IMG/VR virus record: IMGVR_UViG_3300024348_000007
Length of the DNA: 64,000 bases
Direction: 5' to 3' (one strand)
From: a virus
This document shows positions 24,825 to 47,293 of the stretch, in pieces; position 1 is the first letter of the stretch; each line of letters starts with the position of its first letter. The notes below the pieces were generated by a model, which was not told where the DNA came from, ran no database searches, and saw only the letters and a list, made by a program, of their open reading frames with translations. Position numbers and translations under genes: made by a program.

Positions 24825-24862
24825 AAAGAAAAATAGAAGCCTAACTGGGGAGAGTGAACCGA

Positions 24863-27800
24863 ATGGCAAATGATAAAAAATTCATAGTAAAGAACGGACT
24901 TCAATCTGAGAATAACGTTCTTGTCGGTACTACAACAGATGACGGCGTAAATAAATTACAAGTATCAGGTACAACTAAGCTTATAAACTCAGGCTCATCG
25001 GTTCCAATTACTATTGAGAACACGGGCGGTATTAATACTCCTTTAATAAATTTTGAAGGTGGTGTAGGCGCGCTACAAGTTAAAAACACGGGTAGCGGAG
25101 ACTATAGTATTCTCAATACCTCAGGCGCTAACGAAATAAAATTTAATGATAATACTGCAAATGGTTTGGTATTCATTGCTGGCAATACAGATCAGCTTAA
25201 AATCAATACTACTGTAGCAGATTTCACTAATGTTCCTTCTATTAATGGTGTACCAGTTTGGTATAGCGGTAACGATGGAGCAGGATCTGGTCTTGATGCC
25301 GACTTATTAGACGGTCTTAATTCAATACAATTCCTGCGTAGCGATGAAAACGATACTTTTGACGGTGACTTAGTTATAACTGGTGATCTTACTGTACAAG
25401 GTACTCGTACTGAAATAATTTCAGAAACAGTTTTAATTGCTGATAATATCATTACACTTAATAGTAATTTCACAGCATCTAATCCTACAGAAAATGCAGG
25501 TATAGAAGTAGAACGTGGTACTTTAACTAATTCAATTTTTCAATGGAACGAAACTATGGACTGGTGGGAACTTAATTCTGCTGGTACAAGTTTAGGACGT
25601 ATTATTACAACAGCCGATGAAGGTTCAGGCAACGGGTTTGATGCGGATACAGTTGATGGTTTACAAGCTTCACAATTTATTCGTTCTGATGTTAATGACG
25701 TCGCAACTGGTAATTTAGAATTTGAAGGCACAGTTGCTATTGGTAACGAGGCTGGTTCCGCATTACTCACAATGCGAGGTGCTGGTACTAACAGAGTTCT
25801 TTCTTCTGATAACGGAAAGATAGGTTTCTTAGATACAGGCTTTGCTTATAATACATATTCTGATGCTAACTACAATTGGCATGTAGGGAACGATGTTATT
25901 GCTAAAAGATTACTTGATGCAGATGATAACAGCTATCTAGTCGATCCTGCGGGAGAGTCTCAACTAAATGATGTCGTATTAGTAGGTGAACTTTACGGCC
26001 ATGACGGTACTGCAAAAGATGGTAGCACATATATCGATCTTCAAAACAACGGTACAACTGGATTAATTTATTTTAACGTTGATGGCGCTGGGTTACACAC
26101 CACTTTATCAAAAGATCAGATGTTTGTAAACAAAAAAGTTGTTGCACCAAGATTTGAAGATAGCAACGATAACGGATATTATGTAGTACCTAGTAGTGTA
26201 TCAAGACTTAGCCAAATTCAAATAGATGATTATATCATACACAAAGGTGATACAAATACTTACTTTGGTTTTGACACAGATGATAGTTATAAATTGTACA
26301 TTAACGGTGTTCAACAACTCGCAATGTCAGCAAGCTCTGCCGTATTTACTAATGATGTTGAAGCGGCTAGATTTGTAGATTCAGATAACAATAGCTATTT
26401 TCTTGATCCAGCTAGTGCCTCTACTTTAAATACAATTGGTATTGACTCAGATCTTTTCCATAACGGTGATACCGATACTAAACTTTCATTCGGTACAAAT
26501 CAAATTGATTTCAATACTGGCGGTACACAAAGACTTTCTATAGCAAACGCAGCATCAACCTTCAGTCACAGTGTAATTGCTCCCAACGTTTACATAGACG
26601 ATTACATATATCATACAGGAGACACGCCTGCAAATACAACTTATTTTGGTTTTTCTGCAGATGATAATTTTGGCGTAGTATTAGGAGGTAATGGTGCACT
26701 TTTACTTACGCCTACCGCTACAACTTCTATTGCTTACATATATGCGCCTCGCTTTGTTGACACAGATAATAGTGCTAGATATTTAGATCCTAGTGCTACT
26801 TCACCTTTGAATAACATTTCTTTAGATGGTGTTTTACAAAACTTAAACGATCCAGATACATATTTAACATTTGCTTCGGATGCGGTTCAGTTTTATACTG
26901 GTAATACATTAAGAGCTTTTATTAATAATTCTTATCTTGAAACTACGGTTTCTGTAAGATCTCCAGTATATTATGGCACAAGCCAAATAGTTGATTTCTT
27001 AGATCTCGATGCAGGAGCTGGTTCTGACGCTTTAAGAGTTAGAGGTAGACTTAACATCGGTGGCGGTACTGATGTTGAAAGATTTAACGATACTACAGGA
27101 AATGGTGGTATTACTATTTCTGGTTATGCAGGTATGGGTGGAACAACTAATCCATCAATTCAAGTATCTGGTGCAAACGGCGCAAGATCTCTTTTATCTC
27201 TTAACAAGATTGATATTGGTGGAAACCCCTATTCTTCTAAAAATAACTACTTTGCAGAATTCTTAACTGATGGTGCAGCAGCTTTCTCAATCAGAGGCGA
27301 CAATTCTAAAAACGCTTATTTTATTGCAGACGCAGATCAAAAAATGGTGTTTATGGATAGTGGAGCCAATACAAGATTGGCTATGGATGAGTTAGGCAAC
27401 ACTATTATCGGTAACGACTCTATAAGTTTTACTCAAGGATCACATACACCAGTACTTGCTTCTGGAGCAAAAACAGATGGTAAACTACACGTTGACGGTT
27501 CCATTCATATAAACGGTGCAGACGATGCGTTGGTTATTGGTGGTACTACATCTACTTTCTTAAGAGATGACGAACTAGGATTTGGTTCAGGCGGTGGTTT
27601 CTATATGAACGATACTACCAATCTTAGAGTTAGAAATAATAAGTTACTAACATCAACGGGTAATGCTTCATTCGCTCAATATCTAGATGCTAATGATGTT
27701 TTATTCTATGGTGACTTTGCTAGTACATCACGAATGAATAACATAAGCCTTGTCGGTGAAGTTATACACGACGGAGATACTAATACTAAAATTGGTTTTG

Positions 27801-30800
27801 GCACAGATCAAATTATTTTTACTGCCGGTGGAACTGCACAGCTTAATGTATATACAACATATGCGCAAGCTACTACAGATATGCGATCCCCAATATTCTC
27901 TGATGCTGGTGGAACTTTTAAATTTGAGCCTAACACGAGCTCAGCTCACAGATTTACAACTCCTACCGGTTGGTTAGAAATCGGTTCTAAAGTTGCAGGT
28001 TCAACCGCATTCGATACAGATAGAGCTTTATTCACTTTCAATAAACGAGTAAATTTTGACGGCGGAATTTCTGCGGCTGACACAAACGATGACGCGTATT
28101 TTAATCGCTATTACGATTATGGAGATAATAACTATTATATAGATGCGGCTGGAGATTCACAATTAAATACTATTGACATTGACGACTTTATCAGACATCG
28201 TGGAGATACAGGAACTTATATGGGTTTCTCTGCTGCAGCAACTTATAAAGTAGTCATAGTAGGTACTGAAAGATTAAATATTGACGGAAACTCTGCTGAT
28301 TTTAATGTTGATGTTTATGCTCCTCGTTATTATGATTCTAATAATACAAACTATTACGTAGATCCTGGATCTACATCTATTGTTAATAATCTTAGAACAA
28401 ATCAAATCCAAATGGATGGTTCTTCTCTAATTATCGACTCACCATCTGGTCCTAAAGGTACCATAATGGTTACGGGTGAAAGAGATAGTTACGCTGGTTA
28501 TATGATTGATAACGACTGGGGCTTTATATCTAGTGGTGCTACAGAAATGGGTCTGTATAACGAGACAGATAACGAATGGTCATTACTCGCCAATAGAAAT
28601 AACTTCACAAGATTATATTCTAACAACATCCATCAAATTGGTGCAGAAAATGGTTACGGTTACGCTCCTAACAGAATGAGAGCGCCAATATTTGAAGACT
28701 CAAACGACACGGCATTCTATGCCGATCTGGCTGGTCAATCACGATTAAAATCTGTTAAGGCTGGCGATAGTGCAATCTATAATAATACAACTTATCCATT
28801 AGAAGTTAAGTCTTCACAAGAACGCATGATCGTTATGCAAAATACATCTGCTGACACTAACTTTCCATCAATTTTACATAATACTAGAAACTCTCGCGCT
28901 ACTATGGCGTTATCATTTAACAACATTGGTGAGCGTTTTTGGTTTGAAGAAAATGGTAATATACAAGCATACGGCGCAGGTATCTTTGGATCTCTTGCAC
29001 TTAACGGCGGTAATGAAGATCTTGGTCTTCTGAAAACTTATGGATCAGGACTTGCCGATCTTAAAATGTTTGATGCTTCAGACTATTGGGATAAGCGAGT
29101 TATTCAGCCGATGCAAGGTTCTGAAAACAGTGCTACATCTAGTACAGGCGAATATGTTAAAAACGGAAATGGTCCATTTGCATCAAGTTATGCTCTAAGA
29201 ACTGCGGGTTACAGAGATTTCGACTCTGATTATATTCCAGTTCAACCTGGAGAAACAATCTACGTTGAACAAGCTGTAAGAAATATTAGTGGTTCTGGCG
29301 GTTTATTTTATCTTGGTGTTAGAAGATACGATAAAGACAAAAACCCGATTGCGTCTAACGATGGTATTGTATACTTCGGAGCAAGCGCTATTAATAATAC
29401 TTCTACTTCTTGGACGGAATACAAAGGTACTCATACTCTTCCAACATCTCATACACCGTATAACGGTTCTGACGGAGAAGGTGTTCGCTATGTAAGAGTT
29501 ATTTCTCTTATGAATTATAGCGCAGGTGGTGCTACACGCGAATTTGGTCCTCCAATTTTAAAACGTACTAACGTACAATCTGATTTAGTTACTCCAAATC
29601 TTACAGTTGAAGTCGATTTAACGGTAGGTGGAAACGCAACAATTACCGGTGATTTAACAGTTGATGATATTACAGCAGATGTTATTACCGCAAATAGATT
29701 TGCAGATCGTGGTAATACTGCTTATTATGTTGAGCCATTAACTGGCGCTAAAGTTGCTGGTTCTTGGGATTGGACAAACGGTTCTATCAACAATCTAAAC
29801 AACTTAACATTTAACGATCCAGGTCCTAATGAAGGTATTAAATGGAACGGTGGTAATCTATGGCAGATTTATGAGTCACCAAATGACTTAGCAACTAATA
29901 CAGGTGGTAATTTACAATTTACTTCTGGTGCAAATCAAGGCTCGATGAGACTTAGAGTTGATACTTCTGGTGATGTATACGCTGGACGTTATCATAGAGC
30001 ACAACGTTTTTATGATACTAACAATGCTGCTTACTACGCAGATCCTGCTTCAACATCTGTACTTAATCAAGTATATATTAATGAATATCTCCGCCACAGT
30101 GGTGATACAGATACTTATTTAAGATTTATAGGTGCAGACGATATGCAGCTTGTTGCTGGTGGTCGTCAAATGCTTCGTATGGGTGAAGGTACAGATCCTG
30201 ATAGATTACGATTTGTTACAGATAGTAACTGGACAGACTCTAACGGTGACTGGGCAATGTCTCGTAATGTTGTTGTACAAGGTACACATACCGCTGTAAA
30301 CAGTTCATACGCGCCAATATTCTACGATTATGATGATAATGCTTATTATGGTAATTTTGCTGGCACATCTTTAATGAATATTGTTAGGGCAAATCGGTTT
30401 GAAGTAGATGGTTCTACAAGATATATCGACGGCATATCAGGTCAATACGGTACTATTAGAGTAACGGGTAACACAAACGGTTATGCTGGTTACGCGATTA
30501 ACGATGACTGGGTGTTCATGTCAAGTGGCGCTGGAATGTCAGGCATTTATAACGATACGAATAACGAATGGTCTGCTCAATTCCTACAGAATAGTGATGT
30601 TAAACTTTATCATAACGGTGGAGAGAAATTCAGCACGAACTCTGGTGGCGCTACAATTTATGGCAGACTAATAGCTGATTACATGGCAGATAGAAATAAT
30701 ACAGCGTATACTGTTAACCCTGCTGGCACATCAAGGTTCTTAGATTTAGACGTTGATAACCCTATCGGTGGAAATATCGCTGGGTATTCTGAGAACTTAT

Positions 30801-33433
30801 TAAGAGTTGATAACAGAGATATTGAGCCAAATGATCATACTGCAGGCAGATTAACGTTTGGTTTCACATCTTGGAATAATAACAACACATCACCTTGGGC
30901 TGATTATTTACACTTAAGATCTTATACAGATGCATCAGGTGGATCAGATAACCTTCTTATGTTTAAGAAGTCTGGTCGTGGAATGCGTTTATGGCAACAA
31001 ACTTTTAACAGTGGTACAGCGTATTCCGCGTATTCTGATGTTGCGATATATAACGCAAACCCTGGTAATACGCCTTTCTATGCATCAAGATACTATGATT
31101 CAAATAATACTGCATACTACGGTGATTTTGCATCAACATCCATTGTTAATATAATTAGGTATGCGTCTGGTGGTTATGCAGAGTTCCAAACAGCAGCCGG
31201 TAATATTCGCGGATATATGCAAGCAACTGACGACAACGATGCGCACCTTAAAATTGCTACATCGGGCGGTGAAGATATTAGATTTACGGACGGCGGCCTA
31301 TCCGGTGATTGGAATGTGATTATCAGAGGTGATGGTCAAACATTAATTCGAAGCAGATTAGACACTCCTATCATGTACGATAGAGATGATACTGGTTATT
31401 ATAGTAATCCAGCAGGAGCCTCCAACTTTAATACAAGTATTCGCGCAAACGAGGTTTATGCACGTAACTGGTTCAGAAATGATAACTCTGGCGAGGGTAT
31501 GTATAACCAAGCAACGGGTATGCATTGGTATTCAACAAATAATACCACTTGGAGAGCATACGGCGGACAGACTACTGTAAAAATAGAAATGAACACAGCT
31601 AGTAATACTTTAAGAGGTTCATTCTACGCAAACAATAGTGATGAAGTAGGTATCTTATCTCAAGATAATGGTTGGGCTTTACAAGCTACTAACTCTAAAG
31701 TAGATGCGCACCATAATTTCTATGCTCCTATCTTTTATGATAGAGACGATTCAAATTATTATGTAAATCCAGCCGGCGATGCAAGAATTTCTGGTACTGT
31801 TCAAGCAAACCGTTTTACACATAGAGATGCAGTATCACAAAACGATACTTTTGGACTATATTTTGCTGATAACGCATCTACTGCATACGCGATTTATCGT
31901 GAAAGCGGTGGTTGGAGCAGCCCATATCCAGATTTAAGAATTGCTTTCCATACTGGTATTAAGTTTGGTGCAAACTCTGGTTACCAAGGTATGCGTTTCT
32001 ATAATGACTATAACATGGTTACTCAGGTTATGTCAATCAATAATGGTAGTGACCCATTAGGTGCTAACGATGTTTATGTAAATAACTCATTGCAATCAGG
32101 CAATTCATTAAGATCGCCTATTTTTTATGACTCGAACGATACAGCTCGTTACACGAACCCTGCAAGTACATCTGAAATGGGCACTATACGAGCCGATCGT
32201 TTTGATATGCGTGATCGTGGAGATTGGATTACTTTCTATGGTGATGATAGTACAAACCATGGTATTGCATCTCGTGGTTCTACAGGAACCGCAACTGACG
32301 ATATTCGTATTAACACCTATGGTTCTCTTTTTATTAACCTAGACTCAAACAACAATAATACATCTGGAGCTGACTTCTATATTGGTCGCCATGGTAGTGC
32401 TACTGGTACTATTGCTAATAGTGACTTGTTTAGAGTATACGGTGATGATAACTATGCTTACTCAGCATACAGTTTCAGAGCGCCTATCTTCTATGACTCA
32501 AACGACACTGGTTATTATTGTAATCCGAACAGTTCATCTAATTTTGCTACATCTGTTCGTGCAAATGAATTCTATGCTCGTAACTGGTTCCGTAATGATA
32601 ATGGCGCAGAAGGTTTATATAACCAAAATAACGGTTGTCACTTCTATGCGAGATCGTCTCAATACTGGCACGCGACTGGTAATAATAACGCCAGTGCTAT
32701 TAATATGCAATTAAGATCAACATATGACGGCAATATTAGGATGTGGTTACACGGTGACTCATCAAGTTGGTGTGGATACTTAAATGATGGCGGTCAATGG
32801 ATGATTAGAACTAGAATGACAGATGGTTCGTCTCCAAACCACTGGTATTATGAGGATTCAAACACAACTTGGACCGGTAACCCTGGGAATGATAAAGGTA
32901 AAATTGAATATCACTCAGATAGATTTTATATCGCTGCTGGTGGTAACTCAAATAGAATTTGTCAATTCCGTAGAGATGGTACTGATAAAGCTTATGTTAA
33001 TAACGATGGCGTTTATGTCGGTACAGCTACGTCAGCACAATGGGCTGACCTTGCAGAAAGATATAGCGCTGACGAAGTTTATGAGAATGGTACATTACTA
33101 GGTATGAACCTAGACGGTGAATCTGAAGGTACTCTTTATCAACCAGGAATGCCTATCTTAGGAGTTATTTCTACATCGCCTGGTGTTAAAATGAACGACA
33201 TGGAAATCGAAGATGATAACTCTCTTGAAGGTAAAATGAACCCTTATATTGCTCTTAAAGGACGTATACCGTGTAAAGTAAATGGAGACGTTAAAAAGGG
33301 TCAATGGTTAATACCTGATATTGACGGTAAATGTAAAGGAATAGATTATGGTACTTCTGGTATAAATAGTCATGAAATTATAGGAATTGCGCTTAGCGAC
33401 TCCGAAAATGGTGAAGTAGAGGTGAAAGTATAA
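24863..33433 (+). CDS. long tail fibre (~2856 aa) with C-terminal autoproteolytic intramolecular chaperone (Peptidase G2-like)
   Basis: ATG at 24863 follows a GGGGAGAG SD. GSGLDADLLDG motif and many 'P.FYDS..T.YY..PA..S' repeats. C-terminal WADLAERY...ILGVIST.PG..MN...IALKGRIPCKV.G.VKKG domain. Confidence 0.8.
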   Translation: MANDKKFIVKNGLQSENNVLVGTTTDDGVNKLQVSGTTKLINSGSSVPITIENTGGINTPLINFEGGVGALQVKNTGSGDYSILNTSGANEIKFNDNTANGLVFIAGNTDQLKINTTVADFTNVPSINGVPVWYSGNDGAGSGLDADLLDGLNSIQFLRSDENDTFDGDLVITGDLTVQGTRTEIISETVLIADNIITLNSNFTASNPTENAGIEVERGTLTNSIFQWNETMDWWELNSAGTSLGRIITTADEGSGNGFDADTVDGLQASQFIRSDVNDVATGNLEFEGTVAIGNEAGSALLTMRGAGTNRVLSSDNGKIGFLDTGFAYNTYSDANYNWHVGNDVIAKRLLDADDNSYLVDPAGESQLNDVVLVGELYGHDGTAKDGSTYIDLQNNGTTGLIYFNVDGAGLHTTLSKDQMFVNKKVVAPRFEDSNDNGYYVVPSSVSRLSQIQIDDYIIHKGDTNTYFGFDTDDSYKLYINGVQQLAMSASSAVFTNDVEAARFVDSDNNSYFLDPASASTLNTIGIDSDLFHNGDTDTKLSFGTNQIDFNTGGTQRLSIANAASTFSHSVIAPNVYIDDYIYHTGDTPANTTYFGFSADDNFGVVLGGNGALLLTPTATTSIAYIYAPRFVDTDNSARYLDPSATSPLNNISLDGVLQNLNDPDTYLTFASDAVQFYTGNTLRAFINNSYLETTVSVRSPVYYGTSQIVDFLDLDAGAGSDALRVRGRLNIGGGTDVERFNDTTGNGGITISGYAGMGGTTNPSIQVSGANGARSLLSLNKIDIGGNPYSSKNNYFAEFLTDGAAAFSIRGDNSKNAYFIADADQKMVFMDSGANTRLAMDELGNTIIGNDSISFTQGSHTPVLASGAKTDGKLHVDGSIHINGADDALVIGGTTSTFLRDDELGFGSGGGFYMNDTTNLRVRNNKLLTSTGNASFAQYLDANDVLFYGDFASTSRMNNISLVGEVIHDGDTNTKIGFGTDQIIFTAGGTAQLNVYTTYAQATTDMRSPIFSDAGGTFKFEPNTSSAHRFTTPTGWLEIGSKVAGSTAFDTDRALFTFNKRVNFDGGISAADTNDDAYFNRYYDYGDNNYYIDAAGDSQLNTIDIDDFIRHRGDTGTYMGFSAAATYKVVIVGTERLNIDGNSADFNVDVYAPRYYDSNNTNYYVDPGSTSIVNNLRTNQIQMDGSSLIIDSPSGPKGTIMVTGERDSYAGYMIDNDWGFISSGATEMGLYNETDNEWSLLANRNNFTRLYSNNIHQIGAENGYGYAPNRMRAPIFEDSNDTAFYADLAGQSRLKSVKAGDSAIYNNTTYPLEVKSSQERMIVMQNTSADTNFPSILHNTRNSRATMALSFNNIGERFWFEENGNIQAYGAGIFGSLALNGGNEDLGLLKTYGSGLADLKMFDASDYWDKRVIQPMQGSENSATSSTGEYVKNGNGPFASSYALRTAGYRDFDSDYIPVQPGETIYVEQAVRNISGSGGLFYLGVRRYDKDKNPIASNDGIVYFGASAINNTSTSWTEYKGTHTLPTSHTPYNGSDGEGVRYVRVISLMNYSAGGATREFGPPILKRTNVQSDLVTPNLTVEVDLTVGGNATITGDLTVDDITADVITANRFADRGNTAYYVEPLTGAKVAGSWDWTNGSINNLNNLTFNDPGPNEGIKWNGGNLWQIYESPNDLATNTGGNLQFTSGANQGSMRLRVDTSGDVYAGRYHRAQRFYDTNNAAYYADPASTSVLNQVYINEYLRHSGDTDTYLRFIGADDMQLVAGGRQMLRMGEGTDPDRLRFVTDSNWTDSNGDWAMSRNVVVQGTHTAVNSSYAPIFYDYDDNAYYGNFAGTSLMNIVRANRFEVDGSTRYIDGISGQYGTIRVTGNTNGYAGYAINDDWVFMSSGAGMSGIYNDTNNEWSAQFLQNSDVKLYHNGGEKFSTNSGGATIYGRLIADYMADRNNTAYTVNPAGTSRFLDLDVDNPIGGNIAGYSENLLRVDNRDIEPNDHTAGRLTFGFTSWNNNNTSPWADYLHLRSYTDASGGSDNLLMFKKSGRGMRLWQQTFNSGTAYSAYSDVAIYNANPGNTPFYASRYYDSNNTAYYGDFASTSIVNIIRYASGGYAEFQTAAGNIRGYMQATDDNDAHLKIATSGGEDIRFTDGGLSGDWNVIIRGDGQTLIRSRLDTPIMYDRDDTGYYSNPAGASNFNTSIRANEVYARNWFRNDNSGEGMYNQATGMHWYSTNNTTWRAYGGQTTVKIEMNTASNTLRGSFYANNSDEVGILSQDNGWALQATNSKVDAHHNFYAPIFYDRDDSNYYVNPAGDARISGTVQANRFTHRDAVSQNDTFGLYFADNASTAYAIYRESGGWSSPYPDLRIAFHTGIKFGANSGYQGMRFYNDYNMVTQVMSINNGSDPLGANDVYVNNSLQSGNSLRSPIFYDSNDTARYTNPASTSEMGTIRADRFDMRDRGDWITFYGDDSTNHGIASRGSTGTATDDIRINTYGSLFINLDSNNNNTSGADFYIGRHGSATGTIANSDLFRVYGDDNYAYSAYSFRAPIFYDSNDTGYYCNPNSSSNFATSVRANEFYARNWFRNDNGAEGLYNQNNGCHFYARSSQYWHATGNNNASAINMQLRSTYDGNIRMWLHGDSSSWCGYLNDGGQWMIRTRMTDGSSPNHWYYEDSNTTWTGNPGNDKGKIEYHSDRFYIAAGGNSNRICQFRRDGTDKAYVNNDGVYVGTATSAQWADLAERYSADEVYENGTLLGMNLDGESEGTLYQPGMPILGVISTSPGVKMNDMEIEDDNSLEGKMNPYIALKGRIPCKVNGDVKKGQWLIPDIDGKCKGIDYGTSGINSHEIIGIALSDSENGEVEVKV
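33361..33368 (+). promoter_or_regulatory. candidate late promoter TATAAATA inside the 3' end of the fibre gene
   Basis: Exact consensus 67 bp before the ATG of the first Cys/His-tailed gene. It is intragenic, so it could be chance. Confidence 0.5.
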
Positions 33434-33434
33434 T

Positions 33435-33848
33435 ATGCCATCATATGCAGATTTAAACACTAGCATGCAAGAAAAAGCTGGGGCACAGCTACGCACGTTT
33501 GATAAAGGAATTACTATTACAATACAATCGTGGGTTCGTATTTGGGGGTTTGATAGCTCTTACGGATCATGGATGATTGTTAACGGCTATGGTTGGTATG
33601 GTAATAGTGCTCATTACCACAGATTTGAATATGTTAACGCAAATAACACATTGTTTGAAAACTATCTTGATGGCGGAATATATACCGGTGGTATTATCCG
33701 TTCACAAGATGTTATTGATTCAATTACCGATGTTGTTCGAAGAGCTGTTGATTTGGTCGAAGGCAGACTAACTAACAGAAGTATGACTGCACGTCCTTGT
33801 CACCAAAGCTGTCATAGTAGTTGTCATACATCTAGAGGAAGAAGATAA
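33435..33848 (+). CDS. putative radical-SAM substrate / fibre-tip protein A with C-terminal CHQSCHSSCHTSRGRR
   Basis: Starts 1 nt after the fibre stop. Aromatic-rich core with a Cys/His/Ser repeat tail. Paralog of the next gene. Confidence 0.65.
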   Translation: MPSYADLNTSMQEKAGAQLRTFDKGITITIQSWVRIWGFDSSYGSWMIVNGYGWYGNSAHYHRFEYVNANNTLFENYLDGGIYTGGIIRSQDVIDSITDVVRRAVDLVEGRLTNRSMTARPCHQSCHSSCHTSRGRR

Positions 33849-34270
33849 TGGCTGCATCAGTATCTGACATTAACTCATATGTACAAACATATTCTGGCTC
33901 ACAACTAAGAACTTTTGATAAAACCGTCACATATACCGTAAATACGTATGTTCGGTATTATCGATTTGATAGCGCATATGGCGGTGCGTTGAGGCTTGAC
34001 GGTGCTCAATATACTACAAACTCAACCTTTACTAGAAGATATCTTCATTACTCCTGGACCGGGCGCGATGCACTCTTTGACGGCTATTATGACTCTGGAA
34101 TTACTGCAGGTGGACTTATGTATGCTCAAGATATTGTAGATACTGTAGAAGATGCTGTAAGAAGAGCTGTTGATCTAATGGAGGAAAGAATCGTAAATAC
34201 AGTCAAGACAATTAACGCGTGCCATGCTAGTTGCCATAGTAGTTGTCACACATCGAGAGGAAGACGCTAA
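33848..34270 (+). CDS. putative radical-SAM substrate / fibre-tip protein B with C-terminal CHASCHSSCHTSRGRR
   Basis: TAATG overlaps on both sides. Shares QLRTFDK, FDSxYG, LFxxYxDxGIxxGG, QD, D.VRRAVDL.E.R and the tail with protein A. Confidence 0.65.
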   Translation: MAASVSDINSYVQTYSGSQLRTFDKTVTYTVNTYVRYYRFDSAYGGALRLDGAQYTTNSTFTRRYLHYSWTGRDALFDGYYDSGITAGGLMYAQDIVDTVEDAVRRAVDLMEERIVNTVKTINACHASCHSSCHTSRGRR

Positions 34271-35445
34271 TGTCTATGCAAAAATCATATTGTAAACAAA
34301 TGAGATATTCTGGACCAGAAAGTCTAACACCATCTGATGCATCTAAATTCGATGTTCTTATTCAAATGGAAGTTTTAGCTGGGTGCGATCACGGTTGCTT
34401 AGGTTGTTTCGTAGATAAAAACATTAATCCTGATATGAACCAACAAATTATTGATAGAGCAAAGGAACTCGCTGATGGTGTAAAAAGAACTGGGCTTAAT
34501 CTTAGAGAATTTGTCATAGGTCCAACAGATTTCTTTTCTGCAACTAACACGGAGTCAGTTTTAAATAACTCAGTAGTCCAAGAGATTATGAGAGAACACG
34601 TTGGCGCTCGGATTGCAGCACCTGCAAAATTTGATATCGCTACAATGGAAAGAGTAAAAGAAATCTATGCAATTCTTGATGACGAAGATAAGTATCGCCG
34701 TGATATGATCATTGAGTTTATTATGCCAATCGGTAAAGTAGATCAGATGTTAAATGATGAAGAATACTTTAATAATGTTATGGAAAAAGTAGAATTCTTT
34801 AAAAATAATACACCAAAACAAATGGATTGGTCTTGGACACTACAGGCTTCTAACGTTGTTGGTAAGAAGATTGATAAAGAAACATATAACAAGATTGTTC
34901 AAAAATCAGTAAACGAATACAAGACTATTGTAGAAATGAACCCTGCTTTCTCAAGAGCGAGATCCCAATTGGTACAGCGTAGAAACCTGTTTGGATGGAA
35001 CGATTTCCTTGGTAGAGTTATTGATAAAGATAACGCACAAGAGACAGTTATGTCAATGGCTAATCTTTATTGTAACTCAATTAACTTTATTGGACTTACA
35101 ATCGTACCAGGAGAACACGGACCTACTACACATTTAAATGTAATGCTACACGAACAAGCATTCTTCCTTAATAATAAAAACTTAGACGTTACAGGTCTTA
35201 CCTTCGAAGAAATATTAGATCGTAAAAACGAGCTAGTAACCAAGGGCATAAATAGATCAAGCAAAGTATCTGATTGCAACGGATGCCAATTTGCCGTAGC
35301 TTGTGCAAGTAGACTAATTTTTGAAGCTCAAGAAACTTTAAACGTCGATGGATGTGTTTTAAACAAAGATGTCCTTGCAGAATATAACCCATACGATTGG
35401 ACTTGGAACGACGATGCGATGGAAAAACTAGGAGTAACATCATGA
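34270..35445 (+). CDS. radical SAM protein 1 (IGPTD family, C-terminal Cys cluster)
   Basis: EVLAGCDHGCLGCFV (CX3CX2C), VIGPTDF, and CNGCQFAVAC...GC. The ATG at 34270 overlaps the upstream stop. Confidence 0.85.
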   Translation: MSMQKSYCKQMRYSGPESLTPSDASKFDVLIQMEVLAGCDHGCLGCFVDKNINPDMNQQIIDRAKELADGVKRTGLNLREFVIGPTDFFSATNTESVLNNSVVQEIMREHVGARIAAPAKFDIATMERVKEIYAILDDEDKYRRDMIIEFIMPIGKVDQMLNDEEYFNNVMEKVEFFKNNTPKQMDWSWTLQASNVVGKKIDKETYNKIVQKSVNEYKTIVEMNPAFSRARSQLVQRRNLFGWNDFLGRVIDKDNAQETVMSMANLYCNSINFIGLTIVPGEHGPTTHLNVMLHEQAFFLNNKNLDVTGLTFEEILDRKNELVTKGINRSSKVSDCNGCQFAVACASRLIFEAQETLNVDGCVLNKDVLAEYNPYDWTWNDDAMEKLGVTS

Positions 35446-36524
35446 TAGGTCAACACCTTTATTTTTTAAATAACAAAAAATATATTACAAACTCGACTAA
35501 TCTCGAAACTGTATTTTTCGAGATGAACTCGTTTTATCACACGAAAACACCTAGAACAGTTTGTATGATTGAATCATCAATGCCAGACAGCCAAATCGTC
35601 CAGTATGATGTAAGAGTACGTGCTGATTCTATTCGCGCTAATGCCGGTGCTGATATTATTTTTAAACCTTGGGAAGAAGTTTGTACTAGTGAGTTTATCC
35701 AAAATAGCGAAAAATATATTCTTGTAGCTTGGGAAGAAGAAGATCAAATTCACATTCACGCAAGATATGCCGCTGGCTTATTAGCCGCTGCTGGTTTCTA
35801 TGCAGATACTGATCACGACGTAAACACTATTGTTGGTGAATTTATGGAAAAAATCTTTGATTGTGATAGTATGTTCACGTATATGTCAGCGGCTCCTGCC
35901 GTTCAAGATATATCAAACACAGTTGAAACTATTTTGAATAATCCAGAAACTCCACCTTTTGATGTTATATATCAAAACGGTAAAAACTTTAGCTATGACT
36001 TTTTATTCTTTTTAAACGAATTCTATCCCTGCGCAGAAGTACAAGCTCTGTTAATCGAGAAGTTTACAATTCATAGCGCTGATATGGCACAAGATGTTAT
36101 GGAACACTTTACGTCACGGCGCCACTACTTGGCATATATTCTTTCTGTAATTGATTGGATGAACAATAACGGTTTACCAGTAGATAAACAACAATTTGTA
36201 AACGATGTTTATATGAAAGCTGCTAATAAAGGTAATTATCAAATTGCGTTTTATCAATTGGAAGAGTTATGGAATAGGGTAAAAGATAACGAAGCTTTCA
36301 TTCTTGCACATACTGATAAAAGAGATAACACAAGAGATGGTTGGGAATTTTGGGATATGTATACCGAAATAAGCAACGTATTCCCTATCGTTAAAAAGGT
36401 GCTTGAGCGTAGTTTTGATATGGATAATCTAACAGAAGACTTGAGGTTGATTAACACTGATGTTCAGTTCTTCTCTAAAAGACAAAATAGAATTCCATAT
36501 TTGATACACAAATACACATTATAG
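35442..36524 (+). CDS. hypothetical protein (~360 aa) in the radical SAM operon
   Basis: ATGA overlap with rSAM1 and a GGAG SD; no motif recognised. Confidence 0.65.
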   Translation: MIGQHLYFLNNKKYITNSTNLETVFFEMNSFYHTKTPRTVCMIESSMPDSQIVQYDVRVRADSIRANAGADIIFKPWEEVCTSEFIQNSEKYILVAWEEEDQIHIHARYAAGLLAAAGFYADTDHDVNTIVGEFMEKIFDCDSMFTYMSAAPAVQDISNTVETILNNPETPPFDVIYQNGKNFSYDFLFFLNEFYPCAEVQALLIEKFTIHSADMAQDVMEHFTSRRHYLAYILSVIDWMNNNGLPVDKQQFVNDVYMKAANKGNYQIAFYQLEELWNRVKDNEAFILAHTDKRDNTRDGWEFWDMYTEISNVFPIVKKVLERSFDMDNLTEDLRLINTDVQFFSKRQNRIPYLIHKYTL

Positions 36525-36534
36525 GATGTAATAA

Positions 36535-37440
36535 ATGAATGATAATGATACAAACAACTTGAATCCAGACAGAGAATTCGAAGATCACAAACTTTCAGAG
36601 CGTGAGAAGAATTTTAAAGCTTATACTTTACCTCTTGCTCCTCAAGATTTAGTTGCGATATATAAACAAAAAGAAGAAGATAAAGACTTTATTCTCTATG
36701 TAGACTACTATCAAACTAAACAGAAATTAAGCCCTAAGCATATTATTATATATTTGGCAAACACCAACTTTAAGGCTGGCTTTACTTTCTTAGATGAAGA
36801 ATTAATTACAGAATATATTAAATCAGATTTTATGATTGATTGTCCAATTCTTGTGCGTATGGTTTCTATTATAGTCAGAATGAGATTGCATTATGATATC
36901 AATGGTGCTGAAAAGAAATTAACTATTTTATTCCCAGAAGAAAAAATACATCAATTTATTGAACAGAACATTGAATTAGTCGATGAACTAATCGAAACTA
37001 TTAGAGATTCTGTGCCGTGGGCTATGGTTAATTTGCATGAAAACTTGACTGACGAAGCCAAAAAAGAAGAGAAAGAACTTACAAACTTTATTAATAATAT
37101 TGATGTTTATGATAAACCATCGAATTGCGGACCTAACGTTGCACGATTTATTACAGAAGCTTGGGACGGGTTTTTATGTATTATTCATAATAAGGGTGTA
37201 AGCTCGACTTATAATAAAACAGTTTATAATGAACAACCAAAGTACTTTGGTAAAGATTTATACTACATTATGAACGAAACTAGGGTTATAGATCAGATTA
37301 TGGCATTGTTCCCATCATGGTTTTGGGCTAAAATCGAAACAGTAGATATAAACGCGCTATTAGAAGAAACTGAGGGCGAACATATCGATAAATTTGTCGA
37401 CGGTCTTGAAGATAAGTTCAATGATAGTCCATCTAAATAA
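36535..37440 (+). CDS. hypothetical protein (301 aa) in the radical SAM operon
   Basis: Acidic, helical-looking ORF with an AGGA SD; no motif recognised. Confidence 0.65.
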   Translation: MNDNDTNNLNPDREFEDHKLSEREKNFKAYTLPLAPQDLVAIYKQKEEDKDFILYVDYYQTKQKLSPKHIIIYLANTNFKAGFTFLDEELITEYIKSDFMIDCPILVRMVSIIVRMRLHYDINGAEKKLTILFPEEKIHQFIEQNIELVDELIETIRDSVPWAMVNLHENLTDEAKKEEKELTNFINNIDVYDKPSNCGPNVARFITEAWDGFLCIIHNKGVSSTYNKTVYNEQPKYFGKDLYYIMNETRVIDQIMALFPSWFWAKIETVDINALLEETEGEHIDKFVDGLEDKFNDSPSK

Positions 37441-38443
37441 TTCTTATGCTGGCTATTATACATATGATGAAGATAAAAGTCCAACAAATATTGATTTTCT
37501 CAGAACAGAAATAAATTTAGATATCTTACACGGATGTTCTCAACAATGTCCTGGATGCTTTATACCAAGAAAAAACTTAACAAAAGCAGATAACCTAGAA
37601 ACCTTATATAATCTTCTTATAGAAGGCGCGTATTATCCTGACGAAATAACAATCGGCCCAACTGATATATTCGATGCTGAAAATTTCAATGAAATCATGA
37701 ATCATCCTTATATGGAAAAAATATACGGAATATCTGCAGTAGGATTTACATCCACTTTAACTCAACCTTATCAATTAATAAGAGATAAACTTGATAAGAT
37801 ATGGAGTTTATATAACAATATAGCGAGAATACCGGATATTGATTTTAAAATTGTTTTAGATATAAACAAATATTTAGATGGAGAATTAGATGATTGGTAT
37901 CGTAAACTTGCGATGTTTAAACATGGTTCTGTGCAATTTAGAGTTAACTATCATAAAGATATATTCAAACGCATTTCATACAATGAATTAGCTCAAAAAG
38001 TATTCGATGACTTTAACGCGCCAGTTATAATCACGCCTTCTTTCTTAACTGATAGAAATGCAAGAGGTAAAGTAGAACAACACCTTGCAAACTTTAGACG
38101 TGAAATGGTTGAACAAAACATAGATAAAAAATGGCTAAACTTATATACATTTTTTGATGCGAAGTTTAACGGTTATGGTTGTCAAAATTATAGTTTTTAT
38201 AATAACAAACTCTATATTAATCCATTCTTATATGATGTGATTATTCAACGTACACCTCAGTTTGAAACAAATATGGATGCTAATACTTTATACGACAACA
38301 TAGAATATGCACAACAAGTTGATGACTGTAATGGATGTGAATATATGATGAGTTGTGCAGAACGCAACGTTCATTTGTATATGGAGTCGAGAGGATTAGA
38401 CACTTGCGTCGCATTGAAAGAATACATGTATGCCTCTAATTAA
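37421..38443 (+). CDS. radical SAM protein 2 (IGPTD family)
   Basis: DILHGCSQQCPGCFI, TIGPTDI, and CNGCEYMMSC...TC. Confidence 0.85.
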   Translation: MIVHLNNSYAGYYTYDEDKSPTNIDFLRTEINLDILHGCSQQCPGCFIPRKNLTKADNLETLYNLLIEGAYYPDEITIGPTDIFDAENFNEIMNHPYMEKIYGISAVGFTSTLTQPYQLIRDKLDKIWSLYNNIARIPDIDFKIVLDINKYLDGELDDWYRKLAMFKHGSVQFRVNYHKDIFKRISYNELAQKVFDDFNAPVIITPSFLTDRNARGKVEQHLANFRREMVEQNIDKKWLNLYTFFDAKFNGYGCQNYSFYNNKLYINPFLYDVIIQRTPQFETNMDANTLYDNIEYAQQVDDCNGCEYMMSCAERNVHLYMESRGLDTCVALKEYMYASN

Positions 38444-39587
38444 GAATAATCTATACTATGAGATGACCACAGAGACTCAGACAAAGCCTGTATCAGCGGT
38501 TAAGATACAGCTAGACGTTTTAGACGGATGCCACCATAAGTGTCCTGGATGCTTTGTACACAGACGTGGTAACTCAAGTGATAAAAATCAGTTAGAGAAT
38601 GCAAAGCAATTTATCAGAAGTATTACAGATCAAGGCATACTTGTTGATGAAATATTAATTGGTCCTACTGACTTTTTAGCATCAGAGAATTTCTTTGATG
38701 TCATGCCTGATTTATTAGATATTATAAATGAGAACTCTCCTATATTAGCGTTTGTTTCTACATTAATTGATGGAGACATAGAAGGATTTTGCGAGTTTAT
38801 TACAGACTATGTAAATTTAGATACTGAGATAGAAATAGGTATTGCGTCAAATCCTTATAAGTTTTTCGATAAAGACTATTTACAACACATCTCTGATATG
38901 TTATATTATATAGATCAAAATCTAGAACATGAAGTAACTTATACTTTTGTTGTTAATATAAGAGATTACGATCTAGATTATTCTGAACTTCACAGATACG
39001 CGGTAGAAAAGTTTGATACAATCCTAGATTTTATTCCAAGCGTATCGCGCTCTCATAAAGCAAAAATGATTTTAGAAACTCTTGATAAGTTTAATGATTA
39101 CTTTAATGTCTTAGCCAAAGATACTAATCTTAATAACATTATGGTTGATCATTCTCATGCTGGAATTAATTATACTGTTTTAAACTATAAAAGAGGAGAG
39201 TGGTATCTTAGTCCGTTTATGTATGAAAATATGGCAATATACCATGAAATGTTTAAGATAGATTCTTTTGAAGATGTCGTACCAATGGTAGAAGACCAGA
39301 TACGTAGAGCAAAAGGAACTGAATGTGAAAATTGCGAGTTGTTTTTTTCTTGTTATAATAGAAAAATTATCTTATTAAGAGATTATTTAGGAGTCGATAG
39401 ATGCATTGCTCCTAAAAAGAATATGTTGAACAATATACACAATTATAATGGCCCTGCACAAGAAATGTATAAATGGGAAGGATATTCTGTAGAGAATGAC
39501 AAAAAAGGTTATCGCAAAAAGTTTTTAGTCACCACAGATGATGATCCAGAATTAGAAAGAATTAAGGATATATCTTATGTTAAATAA
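38430..39587 (+). CDS. radical SAM protein 3 (IGPTD family)
   Basis: DVLDGCHHKCPGCFV, LIGPTDF, and CENCELFFSC...RC. Confidence 0.85.
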   Translation: MPLIKNNLYYEMTTETQTKPVSAVKIQLDVLDGCHHKCPGCFVHRRGNSSDKNQLENAKQFIRSITDQGILVDEILIGPTDFLASENFFDVMPDLLDIINENSPILAFVSTLIDGDIEGFCEFITDYVNLDTEIEIGIASNPYKFFDKDYLQHISDMLYYIDQNLEHEVTYTFVVNIRDYDLDYSELHRYAVEKFDTILDFIPSVSRSHKAKMILETLDKFNDYFNVLAKDTNLNNIMVDHSHAGINYTVLNYKRGEWYLSPFMYENMAIYHEMFKIDSFEDVVPMVEDQIRRAKGTECENCELFFSCYNRKIILLRDYLGVDRCIAPKKNMLNNIHNYNGPAQEMYKWEGYSVENDKKGYRKKFLVTTDDDPELERIKDISYVK

Positions 39588-40734
39588 TGATTGGAAAGAT
39601 ATAGTAAGTGGAGGCGGAATGGGTGAAGAGTTCGCTTCTATTGATAGTATGAAACAATATAAAATTCAAGTTAACCTAGAAATATTAGAAGGTTGCTCTT
39701 ATATGTGTCCTGGTTGTTTTGTGAAACGTCGCGGAAACTGGCATCCAAAATCAATAACAATGTTTCATTCTTTGGCTTACGAATTAAAAGATAGAACAGA
39801 CATCGTATTAGATGATATTGTGATAGGACCTACTGATTTCTACGGAGCTGAAAACTTAGATGAGATTATCAATAATTTAAAATTATCTGACGCCATTAAG
39901 ATGATGCCAAAAGATAATAGAAACATTCAACACAATTGTTCTATACTTGGTTCGTTATCTGAGAAAGATATTGAAGGAAAGATAAGAGATATTGAGAAAT
40001 CGCCTTTAGGAGAAGCAGTAGAAGCCTGGGATGTTCAGATCGCTTTGGATTTAAATCGATTAATGAATGACCAAGAATATATCGATGCGCTTGATGAAAG
40101 GATAGAGACATTTAAAAACAGCTCTTTAAACTTCGAAATATCAATGGCTACTAATATCGTTCAAGGTGTAGAAGAAATACTATACCCAGCTATTGATTTT
40201 GTTCGTTCGAAATACGAAACTGTTATCGAAGTATTACCTTCTGTAGTTAGATCATTTAACCATAGTGCAAAGCACGGTGATAAACTATTTGAATGGAATG
40301 ATATGTTAACTCGATTGGCATTAGATACGCATCGTTTTAAAAATAAGTTTCACTTCTTACAGGGAGATGTATCGCATAAAGCATTTAATTATTCAGTTAT
40401 AAGTATTCACAAAGGAAACATGTATTTGTCTCCTTTCATATACGAAAATGCTCAGATACACACAGAAGATTTTCTAGTATCTGATGGTTGGATGTGGTTA
40501 CCAGATGCTGATATATCTGATTTCATACTAGATAGAAAGAATGAAATTGTCAATAGTCAAATTGAAAATAGTCTTGAAAAAGAATGTGGAACATGCAAAT
40601 ATCTTAACATATGCGCGAACAGAATGGTGCCATTAATAATGGATACAGTATTTAATGGAAGAAAGGAATGCATTCTTAATAAAGATGTTATTGCTTTATT
40701 TGATGATGAGGTTTATCATGGGAATAGTTACTAA
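39577..40734 (+). CDS. radical SAM protein 4 (IGPTD family)
   Basis: EILEGCSYMCPGCFV, VIGPTDF, and CGTCKYLNIC...EC. Confidence 0.85.
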   Translation: MLNNDWKDIVSGGGMGEEFASIDSMKQYKIQVNLEILEGCSYMCPGCFVKRRGNWHPKSITMFHSLAYELKDRTDIVLDDIVIGPTDFYGAENLDEIINNLKLSDAIKMMPKDNRNIQHNCSILGSLSEKDIEGKIRDIEKSPLGEAVEAWDVQIALDLNRLMNDQEYIDALDERIETFKNSSLNFEISMATNIVQGVEEILYPAIDFVRSKYETVIEVLPSVVRSFNHSAKHGDKLFEWNDMLTRLALDTHRFKNKFHFLQGDVSHKAFNYSVISIHKGNMYLSPFIYENAQIHTEDFLVSDGWMWLPDADISDFILDRKNEIVNSQIENSLEKECGTCKYLNICANRMVPLIMDTVFNGRKECILNKDVIALFDDEVYHGNSY

Positions 40735-41737
40735 TAACCTAAGAGCTGCTAAAGCTGATAAAGATTTTGATCTATCATTCTCTGAAGGACATGAAATTAA
40801 AGTACAGTTTAATTGCGAAGTATTATCGGGGTGTGAGTTTAAATGTAAAGGTTGTTTTGTAAACAAACTTGGTTCCAACATGGGATCTTATGATAGACTT
40901 AATAACGCTATAGATTTATTTAATGCAAACGGTTACAGAGTGTCAACCATTAATATTGGGCCTACTGATTTATTTGGTAATAATAATGTTATCGAGTTAT
41001 TAAAAGACGAAACATTTCGAGAGTGTTTAAGCAAGGTTTCTACTATACAATTCGTAACAACCCTAACAAGCATTTCGCAAGAAGTTATTGAACTACTTAA
41101 CAGCATCCCTAAAATAGATGGATTTTTATATGATTGTAATATAGCTTTACAACCTCCTGTAAATTGGGATTGGGTAGAAGAGCGATTAGACCTTCTGAAT
41201 GGATTTACGGATGATCTAAATTATTATATGGTTTATAACATGGGTAATGATGACGAGTACAATTCTAAAGTGCTTGAAATGTCAGAACTTGTTGAGGATA
41301 GGTTTGACTCAATCCTTACATTAAACCCGTCATTCTTTAGAGCACCAAAATCTAAGGTTCAAAAACATCTTATTGAGAAATGGAAGAACTATGACTTCTC
41401 AGATAATCTTATGCCTAAAACATTTATTGACCAAGCGCAAGGTGGTTCTTTAGAGTTAAACTATACTTACTGCAACGAACGTTTCTTTTGGACGCCATTC
41501 GTATATGACATCGCTTTAATAGGTACTGATGAATTCCAAGTTAAAGATGAGAACGATATTGAATCATGGACTCAAGTAAAAGAAAATAAGTTTATGTCAC
41601 AGTTGTCTTATTCAAGTAAAACTGATAACTGCGCCTCTTGTAAAAACCTAATGACATGTATTGATAAAGGCGTATTAAGTTATATGGAACATCATTCACT
41701 TACGGGCTGTACGTTTCCTGGAGTAATAACGACCTAA
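40718..41737 (+). CDS. radical SAM protein 5 (IGPTD family)
   Basis: EVLSGCEFKCKGCFV, NIGPTDL, and CASCKNLMTC...GC. ATG at 40718 follows a GAGGT SD. Confidence 0.85.
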   Translation: MGIVTNNLRAAKADKDFDLSFSEGHEIKVQFNCEVLSGCEFKCKGCFVNKLGSNMGSYDRLNNAIDLFNANGYRVSTINIGPTDLFGNNNVIELLKDETFRECLSKVSTIQFVTTLTSISQEVIELLNSIPKIDGFLYDCNIALQPPVNWDWVEERLDLLNGFTDDLNYYMVYNMGNDDEYNSKVLEMSELVEDRFDSILTLNPSFFRAPKSKVQKHLIEKWKNYDFSDNLMPKTFIDQAQGGSLELNYTYCNERFFWTPFVYDIALIGTDEFQVKDENDIESWTQVKENKFMSQLSYSSKTDNCASCKNLMTCIDKGVLSYMEHHSLTGCTFPGVITT

Positions 41738-43466: not shown

Positions 43467-43854
43467 ATAACATTTCCTCTTTATAGTATTCGTAGATATC
43501 GGGAACCATACCAAGTTTTTCATTAAACTCTAGTTGGAATAGTATCTCGTCGTAAGTTTCTTTGTCTTGCCAATATGGAACAAAGTGCGGATCATTATTA
43601 AATAGTAACTCAGGATCGTTAAGTGCATCGAAAAACGGTTCGTTAAAATCCCTGTTTAACCAATGAGCATAACATATAGCAACTACATATGATTTAGCTG
43701 GGTAAATCCATTCGTCTACATACTCTCTGAAGTGTGTTAGAGCAAACTCAACCGTAAGGTCAGGTTGCCAATTAATCTCCACGTCAGTCAGATCATCTTT
43801 GAATAAAGATGCTGTCAAATGATATGCGCTTTGTCTAGCTTTCCATTCTTTCAT
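43456..43854 (-). CDS. hypothetical protein (~132 aa) between radical SAM genes
   Basis: Overlaps both neighbours; aromatic and acidic; no motif recognised. Confidence 0.6.
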   Translation of the reverse strand: MKEWKARQSAYHLTASLFKDDLTDVEINWQPDLTVEFALTHFREYVDEWIYPAKSYVVAICYAHWLNRDFNEPFFDALNDPELLFNNDPHFVPYWQDKETYDEILFQLEFNEKLGMVPDIYEYYKEEMLFGL

Positions 43855-47266: not shown

Positions 47267-47293
47267 ATTGTATATATTATGAGGAGATTGATT

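Follow-up and report, generated by a model that had tools for sequence, protein, structure and literature searches.

A 64,000-nucleotide stretch of viral DNA (IMG/VR record IMGVR_UViG_3300024348_000007, hereafter the window) carries two small adjoining genes, A and B (positions 33,435–34,270), behind a very large tail-fibre gene and in front of a cassette of radical S-adenosylmethionine (radical-SAM, rSAM) genes. On balance, we favour the reading that A and B belong to the fibre module, are matured by radical-SAM enzymes and are probably virion components. What the analysis shows is the anatomy of the locus, the conserved synteny, the conservation pattern and the presence in virions of one distant homologue that shares the module. 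On this reading, the tail-fibre module would have two accessory proteins that are made late and are not redundant; in each, a folded body of helix, long hypervariable beta-hairpin and second helix would be followed by a flexible 16-residue tail, (Cys-His-x-Ser)x3-Arg-Gly-Arg-Arg. The phage is a marine T4-like myovirus (G+C 32–41%) whose tail sheath is 40–44% identical to those of Sinorhizobium phiM12-type phages, Caulobacter phage Cr30 and pelagimyophages.

Genes A and B are paralogs ending in a conserved Cys/His tail

The features at the centre of the analysis are:

24854–33433, + strand: tail-fibre gene, 2859 amino acids (aa); its last 666 aa match the PHROG tail-fibre families phrog_19602 and phrog_22593
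33435–33848, + strand: gene A, 137 aa; folded N-terminal body and C-terminal tail
33531–33626, + strand: aromatic-rich, indel-rich hypervariable part of a long beta-hairpin (A residues 33–64), seen in entropy, gaps, substitution ratios and model confidence
33798–33845, + strand: tail of A, CHQSCHSSCHTSRGRR, residues 122–137
33848–34270, + strand: gene B, 140 aa, paralog of A; tail CHASCHSSCHTSRGRR at 34220–34267
34270–35445, + strand: first radical-SAM-like gene (rSAM1), with a CX3CX2C motif; its start overlaps the stop of B, and no other gene of the block is as conserved (mean identity 77%)

The first-pass annotation had placed A 1 nt past the fibre stop, and the open reading frame (ORF) coordinates bear this out: the fibre TAA occupies 33431–33433 and the ATG of A begins at 33435, with GAGGTG 9–14 nt 5′ of it. 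The ATG of B is overlapped by the stop of A (TAATG, 33846–33850), and that of rSAM1 by the stop of B (TAATG, 34268–34272). A and B share 46% identity (E 5e-46) and are paralogs.

Relatives of A form 110 clusters at 90% identity, come from marine metagenomes (37–99% identity) and carry no functional name. Both A and B end C-H-x-S-C-H-S-S-C-H-T-S-R-G-R-R, and the RGRR terminus is kept in 109 of the 110 clusters, after three CHxS units with very few substitutions. Aligning 39 members leaves R20, F22 and twelve tail positions without variation (C122, H123, S125, C126, H127, C130, H131, S133, R134, G135, R136 and R137 in A1). Entropy and gaps across the clusters are lowest in the tail and highest at A residues 41–64, a region whose length varies from 14 to 43 aa. 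The median aromatic fraction is 0.21 at residues 33–62 vs. 0.11 in whole proteins.

The AlphaFold2 (AF2) model of A, built with the family alignment, has a mean predicted local distance difference test (pLDDT) score of 82 and consists of a helix (4–19), a long beta-hairpin (23–40/45–65) and a second helix (90–111). From this layout, the variable aromatic-rich segment is predicted to be a beta-hairpin; pLDDT is 73–78 in its variable part vs. ∼90 in the flanks. Confidence drops past residue ∼120 (mean 57 for 121–130 and 44 for 131–137; <50 for 132–137). The earlier description of the pair as folded, aromatic-rich and most variable in the centre is thus confirmed by model confidence, aromatic fraction and the entropy peak, and the two aromatic-rich segments that it quoted were located at A residues 33–56 and B residues 34–55.

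No fold relative of A rose above background with Foldseek against PDB and BFVD or with VIA-align against 48,161 chains (best Z 6.2). The top VIA-align matches were designed helical proteins (Z 5–6), and the 3gw6 chaperone was rejected as noise (E 0.2, TM 0.18). The ESM Atlas gave no usable match for A or for ORF 35442–36521 (see below), and neither NCBIfam nor a Pfam scan (E up to 0.1) placed a family on A or B. PHROGs contributed phrog_35144 alone, a function-unknown family, through the tail region. When the region, A and one class-2 protein (see below) were searched against a phage collection at DNA and protein level, no match was returned. BLAST masks the CHxS tail as low complexity; one alignment stops at residue 280.

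The tail accompanies radical-SAM genes in other viruses

Scanning IMG/VR for the tail motif yielded 107 loci that were confirmed; the 80 retained fell into two classes (class 1, 45 loci; class 2, 35 loci). ORFs of at least 250 aa with a CX3CX2C motif adjoin the tail gene in 79 of the 80, usually four to eight of them; in the exception, L033, the sequence ends 2.4 kb downstream.

Class-1 loci encode A-like proteins of 120–145 aa, as a tandem pair in 40 of 45 loci, with five to eight CX3CX2C genes 3′ of the pair wherever there is enough downstream sequence. In all 44 class-1 loci with an upstream ORF, the first tail gene lies −1 to +12 nt from it. The upstream gene product ranges from 105 to 3290 aa, and its last 103–300 residues are 39–75% identical to the window fibre end (44/44); all of these genes share the C-terminal domain of the fibre (42–75% identity). 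Orthologues of the fibre with 2795–2846 aa are present in L002, L007, L019 and L029. In L039 and L042 there is no giant fibre, and collagen-like Gly-x-y repeats precede the fibre's C-terminal, Peptidase_G2-like domain in short proteins (258–629 aa), so that the shafts bearing the chaperone-plus-A cassette differ widely.

Class-2 tail proteins are longer (180–290 aa) and have a different body, and in most loci their gene lies directly behind a radical-SAM gene. The part common to both classes is the last 56 residues only (helix, linker and tail; hhalign 99.1%). The C-terminal domain of the fibre is present in 29 of the 35 class-2 loci, usually 1.5–2.5 kb upstream; of the six that lack it, three have hardly any sequence upstream. 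In phages, the tail proteins nearly always have a fibre gene with the chaperone as a neighbour. Given the contexts of the two classes, however, what stays constant beside the tail is the radical-SAM set rather than the fibre.

A TATAAATA element precedes gene A:

33361–33368, + strand: TATAAATA, similar to a T4 late promoter; it starts 74 nt 5′ of the ATG of A, inside the last fibre codons

The total number of TATAAATA copies in the window is not above chance (11 observed vs. 10.6 expected). When copy positions were compared with ORF starts, 8 of the 10 plus-strand copies lay ≤75 nt 5′ of a gene start, a placement that suggests T4-type late promoters. These exact copies are at 893, 18150, 24817, 33361, 47259, 47859, 58791 and 62926 on the plus strand, and the genes that they precede include the fibre and the tail sheath genes. 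Of 32 distinct class-1 upstream regions, 9 retain TATAAATA at −74 to −77; because the same letters encode G-I-N-S there, coding constraint is a confounder for its conservation before A.

A tail-bearing protein is detected in virions of Agrobacterium phage Atu_ph07

In the jumbo phage Atu_ph07, gp176 ends in a G2-like domain, and gp170 is encoded ∼2.6 kb downstream. The cassette after gp176 runs cupin gp172, radical-SAM gp171, gp170 and two more radical-SAM genes with no-family ORFs between. Gp170 (296 aa) ends CHSSCHASCHNSRSRR and has its last 72 residues in common with class-2 proteins (profile comparison 98.6%).

In Table S5 of the Atu_ph07 virion study, gp170 (31.9 kDa) from purified virions is represented by 8 unique peptides that cover 35% of the protein (PMC6102473). 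In that table, gp170 occurs in gel bands 1–9 and is most abundant in band 1, the top band, which otherwise holds proteins of ∼87–127 kDa, and 30-kDa proteins peak in bands 7–8. Gp176 is listed too (band 4); gp165–169, gp171 and gp172 do not appear among the Table S5 rows examined. Since the 8 peptides cover 35% of gp170, the table indicates that the body of this tail-bearing protein is in the particle and is not discarded. From its band, gp170 is possibly an SDS (sodium dodecyl sulfate)-resistant high-mass species. Gp176 (66 kDa) peaks with 52–56-kDa proteins in the same table, which would fit the loss of a ∼15-kDa C-terminal domain, the gel being too coarse to decide.

These peptides bear on a different view, in which A and B are classical precursors of RiPPs, peptides that are ribosomally synthesized and then modified post-translationally: the body would be a long leader and the 16-residue tail a core released as cofactor, metal chelator, signal or toxin. 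The invariant tail can be likened to the invariant cores of PqqA, MftA and similar cofactor precursors. Maturases of the rSAM/SPASM type and oxygenases are always encoded next to the tail, both classes have the helix that precedes it, like a recognition sequence, and the fast-evolving helper ORFs described below track the body. We nevertheless consider this view improbable: the Table S5 peptides of gp170 speak for a body that is kept, library scans detected no protease and no exporter or transporter family in the cassette (four cassette ORFs being without family), and a 120-residue, well-folded, hypervariable "leader" in two old paralogs would be atypical.

The fibre C-terminus resembles a self-cleaving chaperone

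Two segments at the end of the fibre matter here:

32837–33049, + strand: pre-chaperone segment, fibre residues 2662–2732; mean identity across loci 65%
33050–33430, + strand: predicted Peptidase_G2-like (phi29 gp12-type) intramolecular chaperone (IMC) domain, fibre residues 2733–2859; PF11962 in homologues, fold match

An invariant W-A-D-L-A-E-x-Y marks the N-terminal edge of the predicted domain (fibre residues ∼2730–2737). PF11962, the Peptidase_G2 IMC autoproteolytic cleavage domain, matched 16 of 25 homologous C-termini (best E 5e-6). The C-terminus of the window fibre itself had no Pfam match, PF11962 included, and phmmer and an alignment profile found no solved relative among the PDB sequences. 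Peptidase_S74 (PF13884) was not matched by the last 199 or 299 fibre residues (E up to 10) or by the 25 homologues (E up to 1).

The AF2 model of the fibre C-terminus has a mean pLDDT of 62, rising to ∼90 over the last 60 residues. Residues 2733–2859 of the model matched the phi29 gp12 fragment 3gqh (VIA Z 7.5, root mean square deviation 3.3, 89 residues) with 24% identity, the highest in the list; the phi29 gp8.5 base (VIA Z 8.1–8.3) and a coherent run of gpD-like phage cement proteins were also matched, and only 75 of the 48,161 chains reached Z 2. It is plausible, from homologues and model, that the fibre C-terminus is a distant phi29 gp12-type self-cleaving chaperone, its cleavage being a prediction. 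The autocleaving chaperone assigned to the fibre in the first-pass annotation is therefore supported through the homologues (PF11962 in 16/25) and the modelled fold (3gqh); it is not of the Peptidase_S74 type of T-even gp37. The homology of short upstream proteins (258–698 aa) to the window fibre begins at residues 2662–2718, and cutting off the chaperone would leave the pre-chaperone segment as the distal end of the mature fibre.

Cys/His ladders are metal binders, and A and B could be Zn- or Fe-binding Cys/His-tail proteins with the radical-SAM genes serving otherwise; alternatively, they could be non-virion fibre assembly factors like T4 gp38/gp57A or lambda Tfa. Genes right after fibre genes often encode chaperones, going by the titles of two papers (PMC9608196 and PMC7289586), and a fold without known relative would suit either proposal. 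We regard both as very improbable: the fibre already has a predicted chaperone domain of its own, the tail and radical-SAM genes occur together in 79 of 80 loci and also in Bdellovibrionota, and gp170, which shares the module, is among the virion proteins of Table S5.

The bodies of A and B diverge fast, together with two class-1-only ORFs

Two ORFs without assigned function follow rSAM1:

35442–36524, + strand: no-family ORF, 360 aa (ORF 35442–36521); no family match; in 45/45 class-1 loci and 0 class-2 loci
36535–37440, + strand: no-family ORF, 301 aa (ORF 36535–37437); phrog_20767, a function-unknown family; in 43 class-1 loci and 0 class-2 loci

Mean identities to the window, taken over 37 distinct class-1 loci, were:

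gene A: 49%
gene B: 46%
ORF 35442–36521: 47%
ORF 36535–37437: 44%
rSAM1: 77%
pre-chaperone fibre segment: 65%

Compared with the window, L007 is 95% identical in rSAM1, 53% in A and 43% in B. The pairwise ratio of nonsynonymous to synonymous substitution rates (dN/dS) in the hairpin is 0.56 for A-type (vs. 0.16–0.27 elsewhere) and 0.36 for B-type proteins; overall, values elsewhere are 0.12–0.27. Among the pairs, first and second genes fall into separate, well-supported lineages, with 24 first genes in one clade (support 96/90); A-type and B-type are therefore old and both have been retained. This paired retention fits non-redundant or heteromeric roles of A and B.

The identity of A correlates (Spearman) with that of ORF 35442–36521 (0.88), ORF 36535–37437 (0.83) and B (0.70), and the identity of B with that of ORF 35442–36521 (0.64) and ORF 36535–37437 (0.74). 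Because B tracks ORF 36535–37437 best, there is perhaps one helper ORF per paralog. Both class-1-only ORFs diverge in step with A and B while the flanking enzymes stay conserved.

A narrower version of our reading makes A and B gp38-type tip adhesins in function: they would dock on the tip after the chaperone is cut, their hairpins would bind the receptor, and radical-SAM chemistry would stiffen or staple the tip. We consider it possible but doubtful. In its favour, the hairpin is rich in aromatic residues and indels and is hypervariable, both lineages are retained as a pair, the place behind a chaperone-bearing fibre gene is conserved, and the pre-chaperone segment varies comparatively little (65% mean identity), as a docking surface should; in the S16/T2 paradigm, autocleavage exposes a gp38 docking surface (PMC7917993), and gp170 is listed in Atu_ph07 virions in Table S5. 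On the other hand, A and B have no sequence relation to gp38 and A gave no fold match above background, their N-terminus lacks Trp and they have no polyglycine motifs. A radical-SAM gene separates class-2 tail proteins from the fibre, Bdellovibrionota loci are mostly without fibre genes, A and the fibre tip do not co-vary, and no fused fibre-A or longer A form turned up in the search, in itself weak evidence.

Observations that weigh against a fibre and virion role

Several results count against A and B as proteins of the fibre module and the virion. (i) The dN/dS of the hairpin stays <1, which shows relaxed or partly diversifying selection, short of proof of positive selection. (ii) The identity of A does not track that of the pre-chaperone fibre tip (rho −0.18); this co-variation lends no support to a contact between A and the fibre tip, although a conserved docking surface would not co-vary much anyway. 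(iii) The G2-like domain also ends Pseudomonas phage PA5oct gp359, a virion protein detected by mass spectrometry, and Campylobacter phage CP220 gp036, which adjoins a baseplate wedge gene, and the tail motif is absent from the whole PA5oct and CP220 records; that the domain is always paired with the tail system was rejected for this reason, and the domain is independent of A and B. (iv) Some Bdellovibrionota loci with the tail have chromosomal-looking contexts with cellular neighbours such as DctP, and the G2 domain is in none of the Bdellovibrionota loci. (v) In Table S5, gp170 smears over bands 1–9, as do many proteins in that gel. (vi) The virion evidence is indirect for A and B, since gp170 shares 72 residues with class 2, and class 2 shares 56 with A. 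The first-pass annotation had held that absence from purified virions, together with a lack of fibre binding, would speak against a fibre-tip role. According to Table S5, a distant relative sharing the module is present in virions, albeit from a smearing gel, and this bears on A and B indirectly.

The Bdellovibrionota cassettes come from metagenome-assembled genomes (MAGs) of Bdellovibrio, Pseudobdellovibrio and Bacteriovoracia (contigs up to 299 kb). There, the same tail is found on class-2-like proteins of 188–215 aa, flanked by 3–8 radical-SAM-like genes; by eye, none of these tail proteins has a hydrophobic N-terminal signal sequence. From these contexts, the tail system needs no phage fibre: its core is the tail protein plus the enzymes, and the fibre link is a phage habit.

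Three loci have features of their own. In a Bdellovibrio MAG (L090:2604-6346, CAWVRN010000013.1), three Peptidase_S74 proteins of 334–373 aa (E 4e-10 to 5e-13) are encoded directly upstream of the (CHxS)x3-RGRR protein and its radical-SAM genes, two of them with weak prepilin-type N-terminal motifs. Because S74 proteins were found in L090 only, and not in L089, L091, L093 or L094, a general fibre link of the Bdellovibrionota cassettes was rejected. In a Bacteriovoracia protein (L086:156-764), the usual three CHxS units are four. In a Pseudobdellovibrio locus (L088:5222-6949), the gene preceding that of the tail protein gives sub-threshold Pfam matches to B12-binding (25 bits vs. cut-off 32) and Radical_SAM (21 bits vs. 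cut-off 29.5), hinting at a class-B radical-SAM enzyme.

Cassette enzymes and other neighbouring genes

The cassette of the window has nine radical-SAM genes: five plus-strand CX3CX2C genes, rSAM1 included, with the two no-family ORFs between, and four minus-strand genes. Its remaining members and its edge are:

37394–38443, 38430–39587, 39577–40734 and 40655–41737, + strand: four further radical-SAM-like paralogs; CX3CX2C motifs, phrog_31457, weak Radical_SAM/NrdG matches
42387–43523, 43835–44749, 44727–45764 and 45755–46783, − strand: four radical-SAM/SPASM-type genes; phrog_1802
43456–43881, − strand: 140-aa ORF amid the minus-strand radical-SAM genes; conserved in all cassette classes, no family match
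46743–47198, − strand: cupin/JmjC-like gene (Pfam Cupin_2, E 3.5e-6); cassette edge
47279–47863, + strand: 2-oxoglutarate (2OG)-Fe(II) oxygenase gene (Pfam 2OG-FeII_Oxy_5, E 9e-14); cassette edge

Against NCBIfam, the minus-strand enzymes matched DynA, DarE, PapB, anSME, HxsB and HxsC, all far under the cut-offs. Judged by these matches, they are generic predicted kin of peptide cross-linking rSAM/SPASM maturases, cyclophane formers included. The 140-aa ORF is present in 33 class-1 loci, in 22 class-2 loci and in Bdellovibrionota loci (34–38% identity); kept across these three settings, it is a core part of the cassette, and it may be a counterpart of HxsD, the small partner, or act as a RiPP recognition element.

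Before the fibre, the plus strand carries a further four structural ORFs of very large size, at 932–12973 (4013 aa), 13395–18089 (1564 aa), 18514–22365 (1283 aa) and 22423–24810 (795 aa). Three of them have tail-fibre or collagen-like PHROG matches. None of the four contains a second copy of the G2-like C-terminal domain.

A proposed maturation pathway and its meaning

We propose three steps. The neighbouring radical-SAM/SPASM enzymes, perhaps joined by the two Fe(II) oxygenases, would first take the tail and the preceding helix as their substrate element and modify it in the cytoplasm. Side-chain cross-links, e.g., Cys thioethers or His-to-Ser three-residue cyclophanes, would be the likeliest products; they are reasonable guesses, since the minus-strand enzymes are kin of cross-linking maturases. 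ORFs 35442–36521 and 36535–37437 would probably serve as substrate-specific helpers. The finished proteins would then be built into the particle with the fibre, the Peptidase_G2-type domain would be removed, and the fast-evolving hairpin would be exposed. The least certain step is the placing of A and B on the fibre tip, where they would bind the host receptor; we hold it only tentatively.

A further proposal, which we think unlikely, is that covalent cross-links weld the tails, either internally or to the processed fibre, giving an enzymatically stapled, SDS-resistant receptor-binding tip. This would also explain why gp170 (31.9 kDa) runs mainly in the top gel band of Table S5. A stapled tip would represent RiPP chemistry on a structural protein, a kind of virion maturation not yet described.

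Should tail modification take place on a particle protein, phages would be using radical-SAM peptide chemistry on the apparatus with which they recognise hosts, a chemistry otherwise met in antibiotics, cofactors and bacterial HXS defence. Fibre assembly would then include an enzymatic finishing step, beside chaperones and autoproteolysis, and many unexplained radical-SAM genes in marine myophage host-recognition regions (PMC7029224) would acquire a function. The system is testable: Atu_ph07 is cultured, and a homologue is already listed among its virion proteins in Table S5.

Comparison with known systems

In the literature collection searched, we found no paper on the CHxS tail family or on the A/B system; radical-SAM cassettes get passing mentions in pelagimyophage host-recognition clusters (PMC7029224).

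In phages S16 and T2, autocleavage of the chaperone exposes the docking site of gp38, which attaches through Trp prongs and binds the receptor with polyglycine-flanked loops (PMC7917993). Like gp38 of T2, T6 and S16, A is encoded by a small gene right after the distal fibre gene, the fibre has a putative self-cleaving chaperone, and the protein has a hypervariable, aromatic-rich segment. Unlike gp38, A and B have no Trp in their first 30 residues and no Gly runs, and the model is helix, hairpin, helix; they have no Pfam GP38 match, and A has no fold match above background (best Z 6.2). Moreover, the fibre chaperone is Peptidase_G2-like here and S74 in gp37, A and B carry a radical-SAM-linked Cys/His tail, and there are two paralogs instead of one gene. 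At the level of the sequence and modelling tools used, homology of A and B to gp38 is excluded. Of the gp38 position proposed for the pair in the first-pass annotation, the place behind a chaperone-bearing fibre is therefore retained (44/44 class-1 loci), and kinship with gp38 is given up on Pfam and the N-terminus, the model of A also giving no fold match above background.

The auto-chaperone of the phi29 gp12 pre-neck appendage (3gqh/3suc) is likewise the C-terminal domain of a trimeric fibre or spike, and its likeness is to the C-terminus of the window fibre. The window copy differs in having no Pfam or PDB profile match and a model pLDDT of 62, and its cleavage is predicted.

Among rSAM/SPASM RiPP systems are the ranthipeptides with PapB, darobactin with DarE, dynobactin with DynA, and the "triceptide" enzymes XyeB and HtkB (PMC11499958). 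As in these, the Cys/His-rich core at the C-terminus of A and B adjoins SPASM-type maturases. H-x-S of A and B fits the aromatic-x-X pattern of three-residue cyclophanes, and the C-x3-C spacing resembles that of thioether ladders. The "leader" of A, however, would be a 120-residue folded hypervariable domain, the maturase matches are far under the cut-offs, no protease or exporter was found, and the body of the module-sharing gp170 stays in virions as judged from Table S5.

In the HXS antiphage system, the effector HxsA carries His-x-Ser repeats and is matured by the rSAM enzymes HxsB and HxsC with the small HxsD (PMC13128918). The models of HxsA (TIGR03979) and HxsD (TIGR03976) had no match in the window, and those of HxsB (TIGR03978; 33 bits vs. 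cut-off 370) and HxsC (TIGR03977; 15–24 bits vs. cut-off 268) scored far below. The A/B unit differs in being Cys-His-x-Ser, at the extreme C-terminus and followed by RGRR; A and B have no Pfam family, and hence no peptidoglycan-binding domain; and the system is phage-encoded in a fibre module here, with nine radical-SAM genes. What the two share is a folded protein with tandem His-x-Ser units (three in A and B, a likeness at motif level only), several adjoining radical-SAM genes and a small conserved partner ORF, and HXS is the closest functional analogue of the A/B system.

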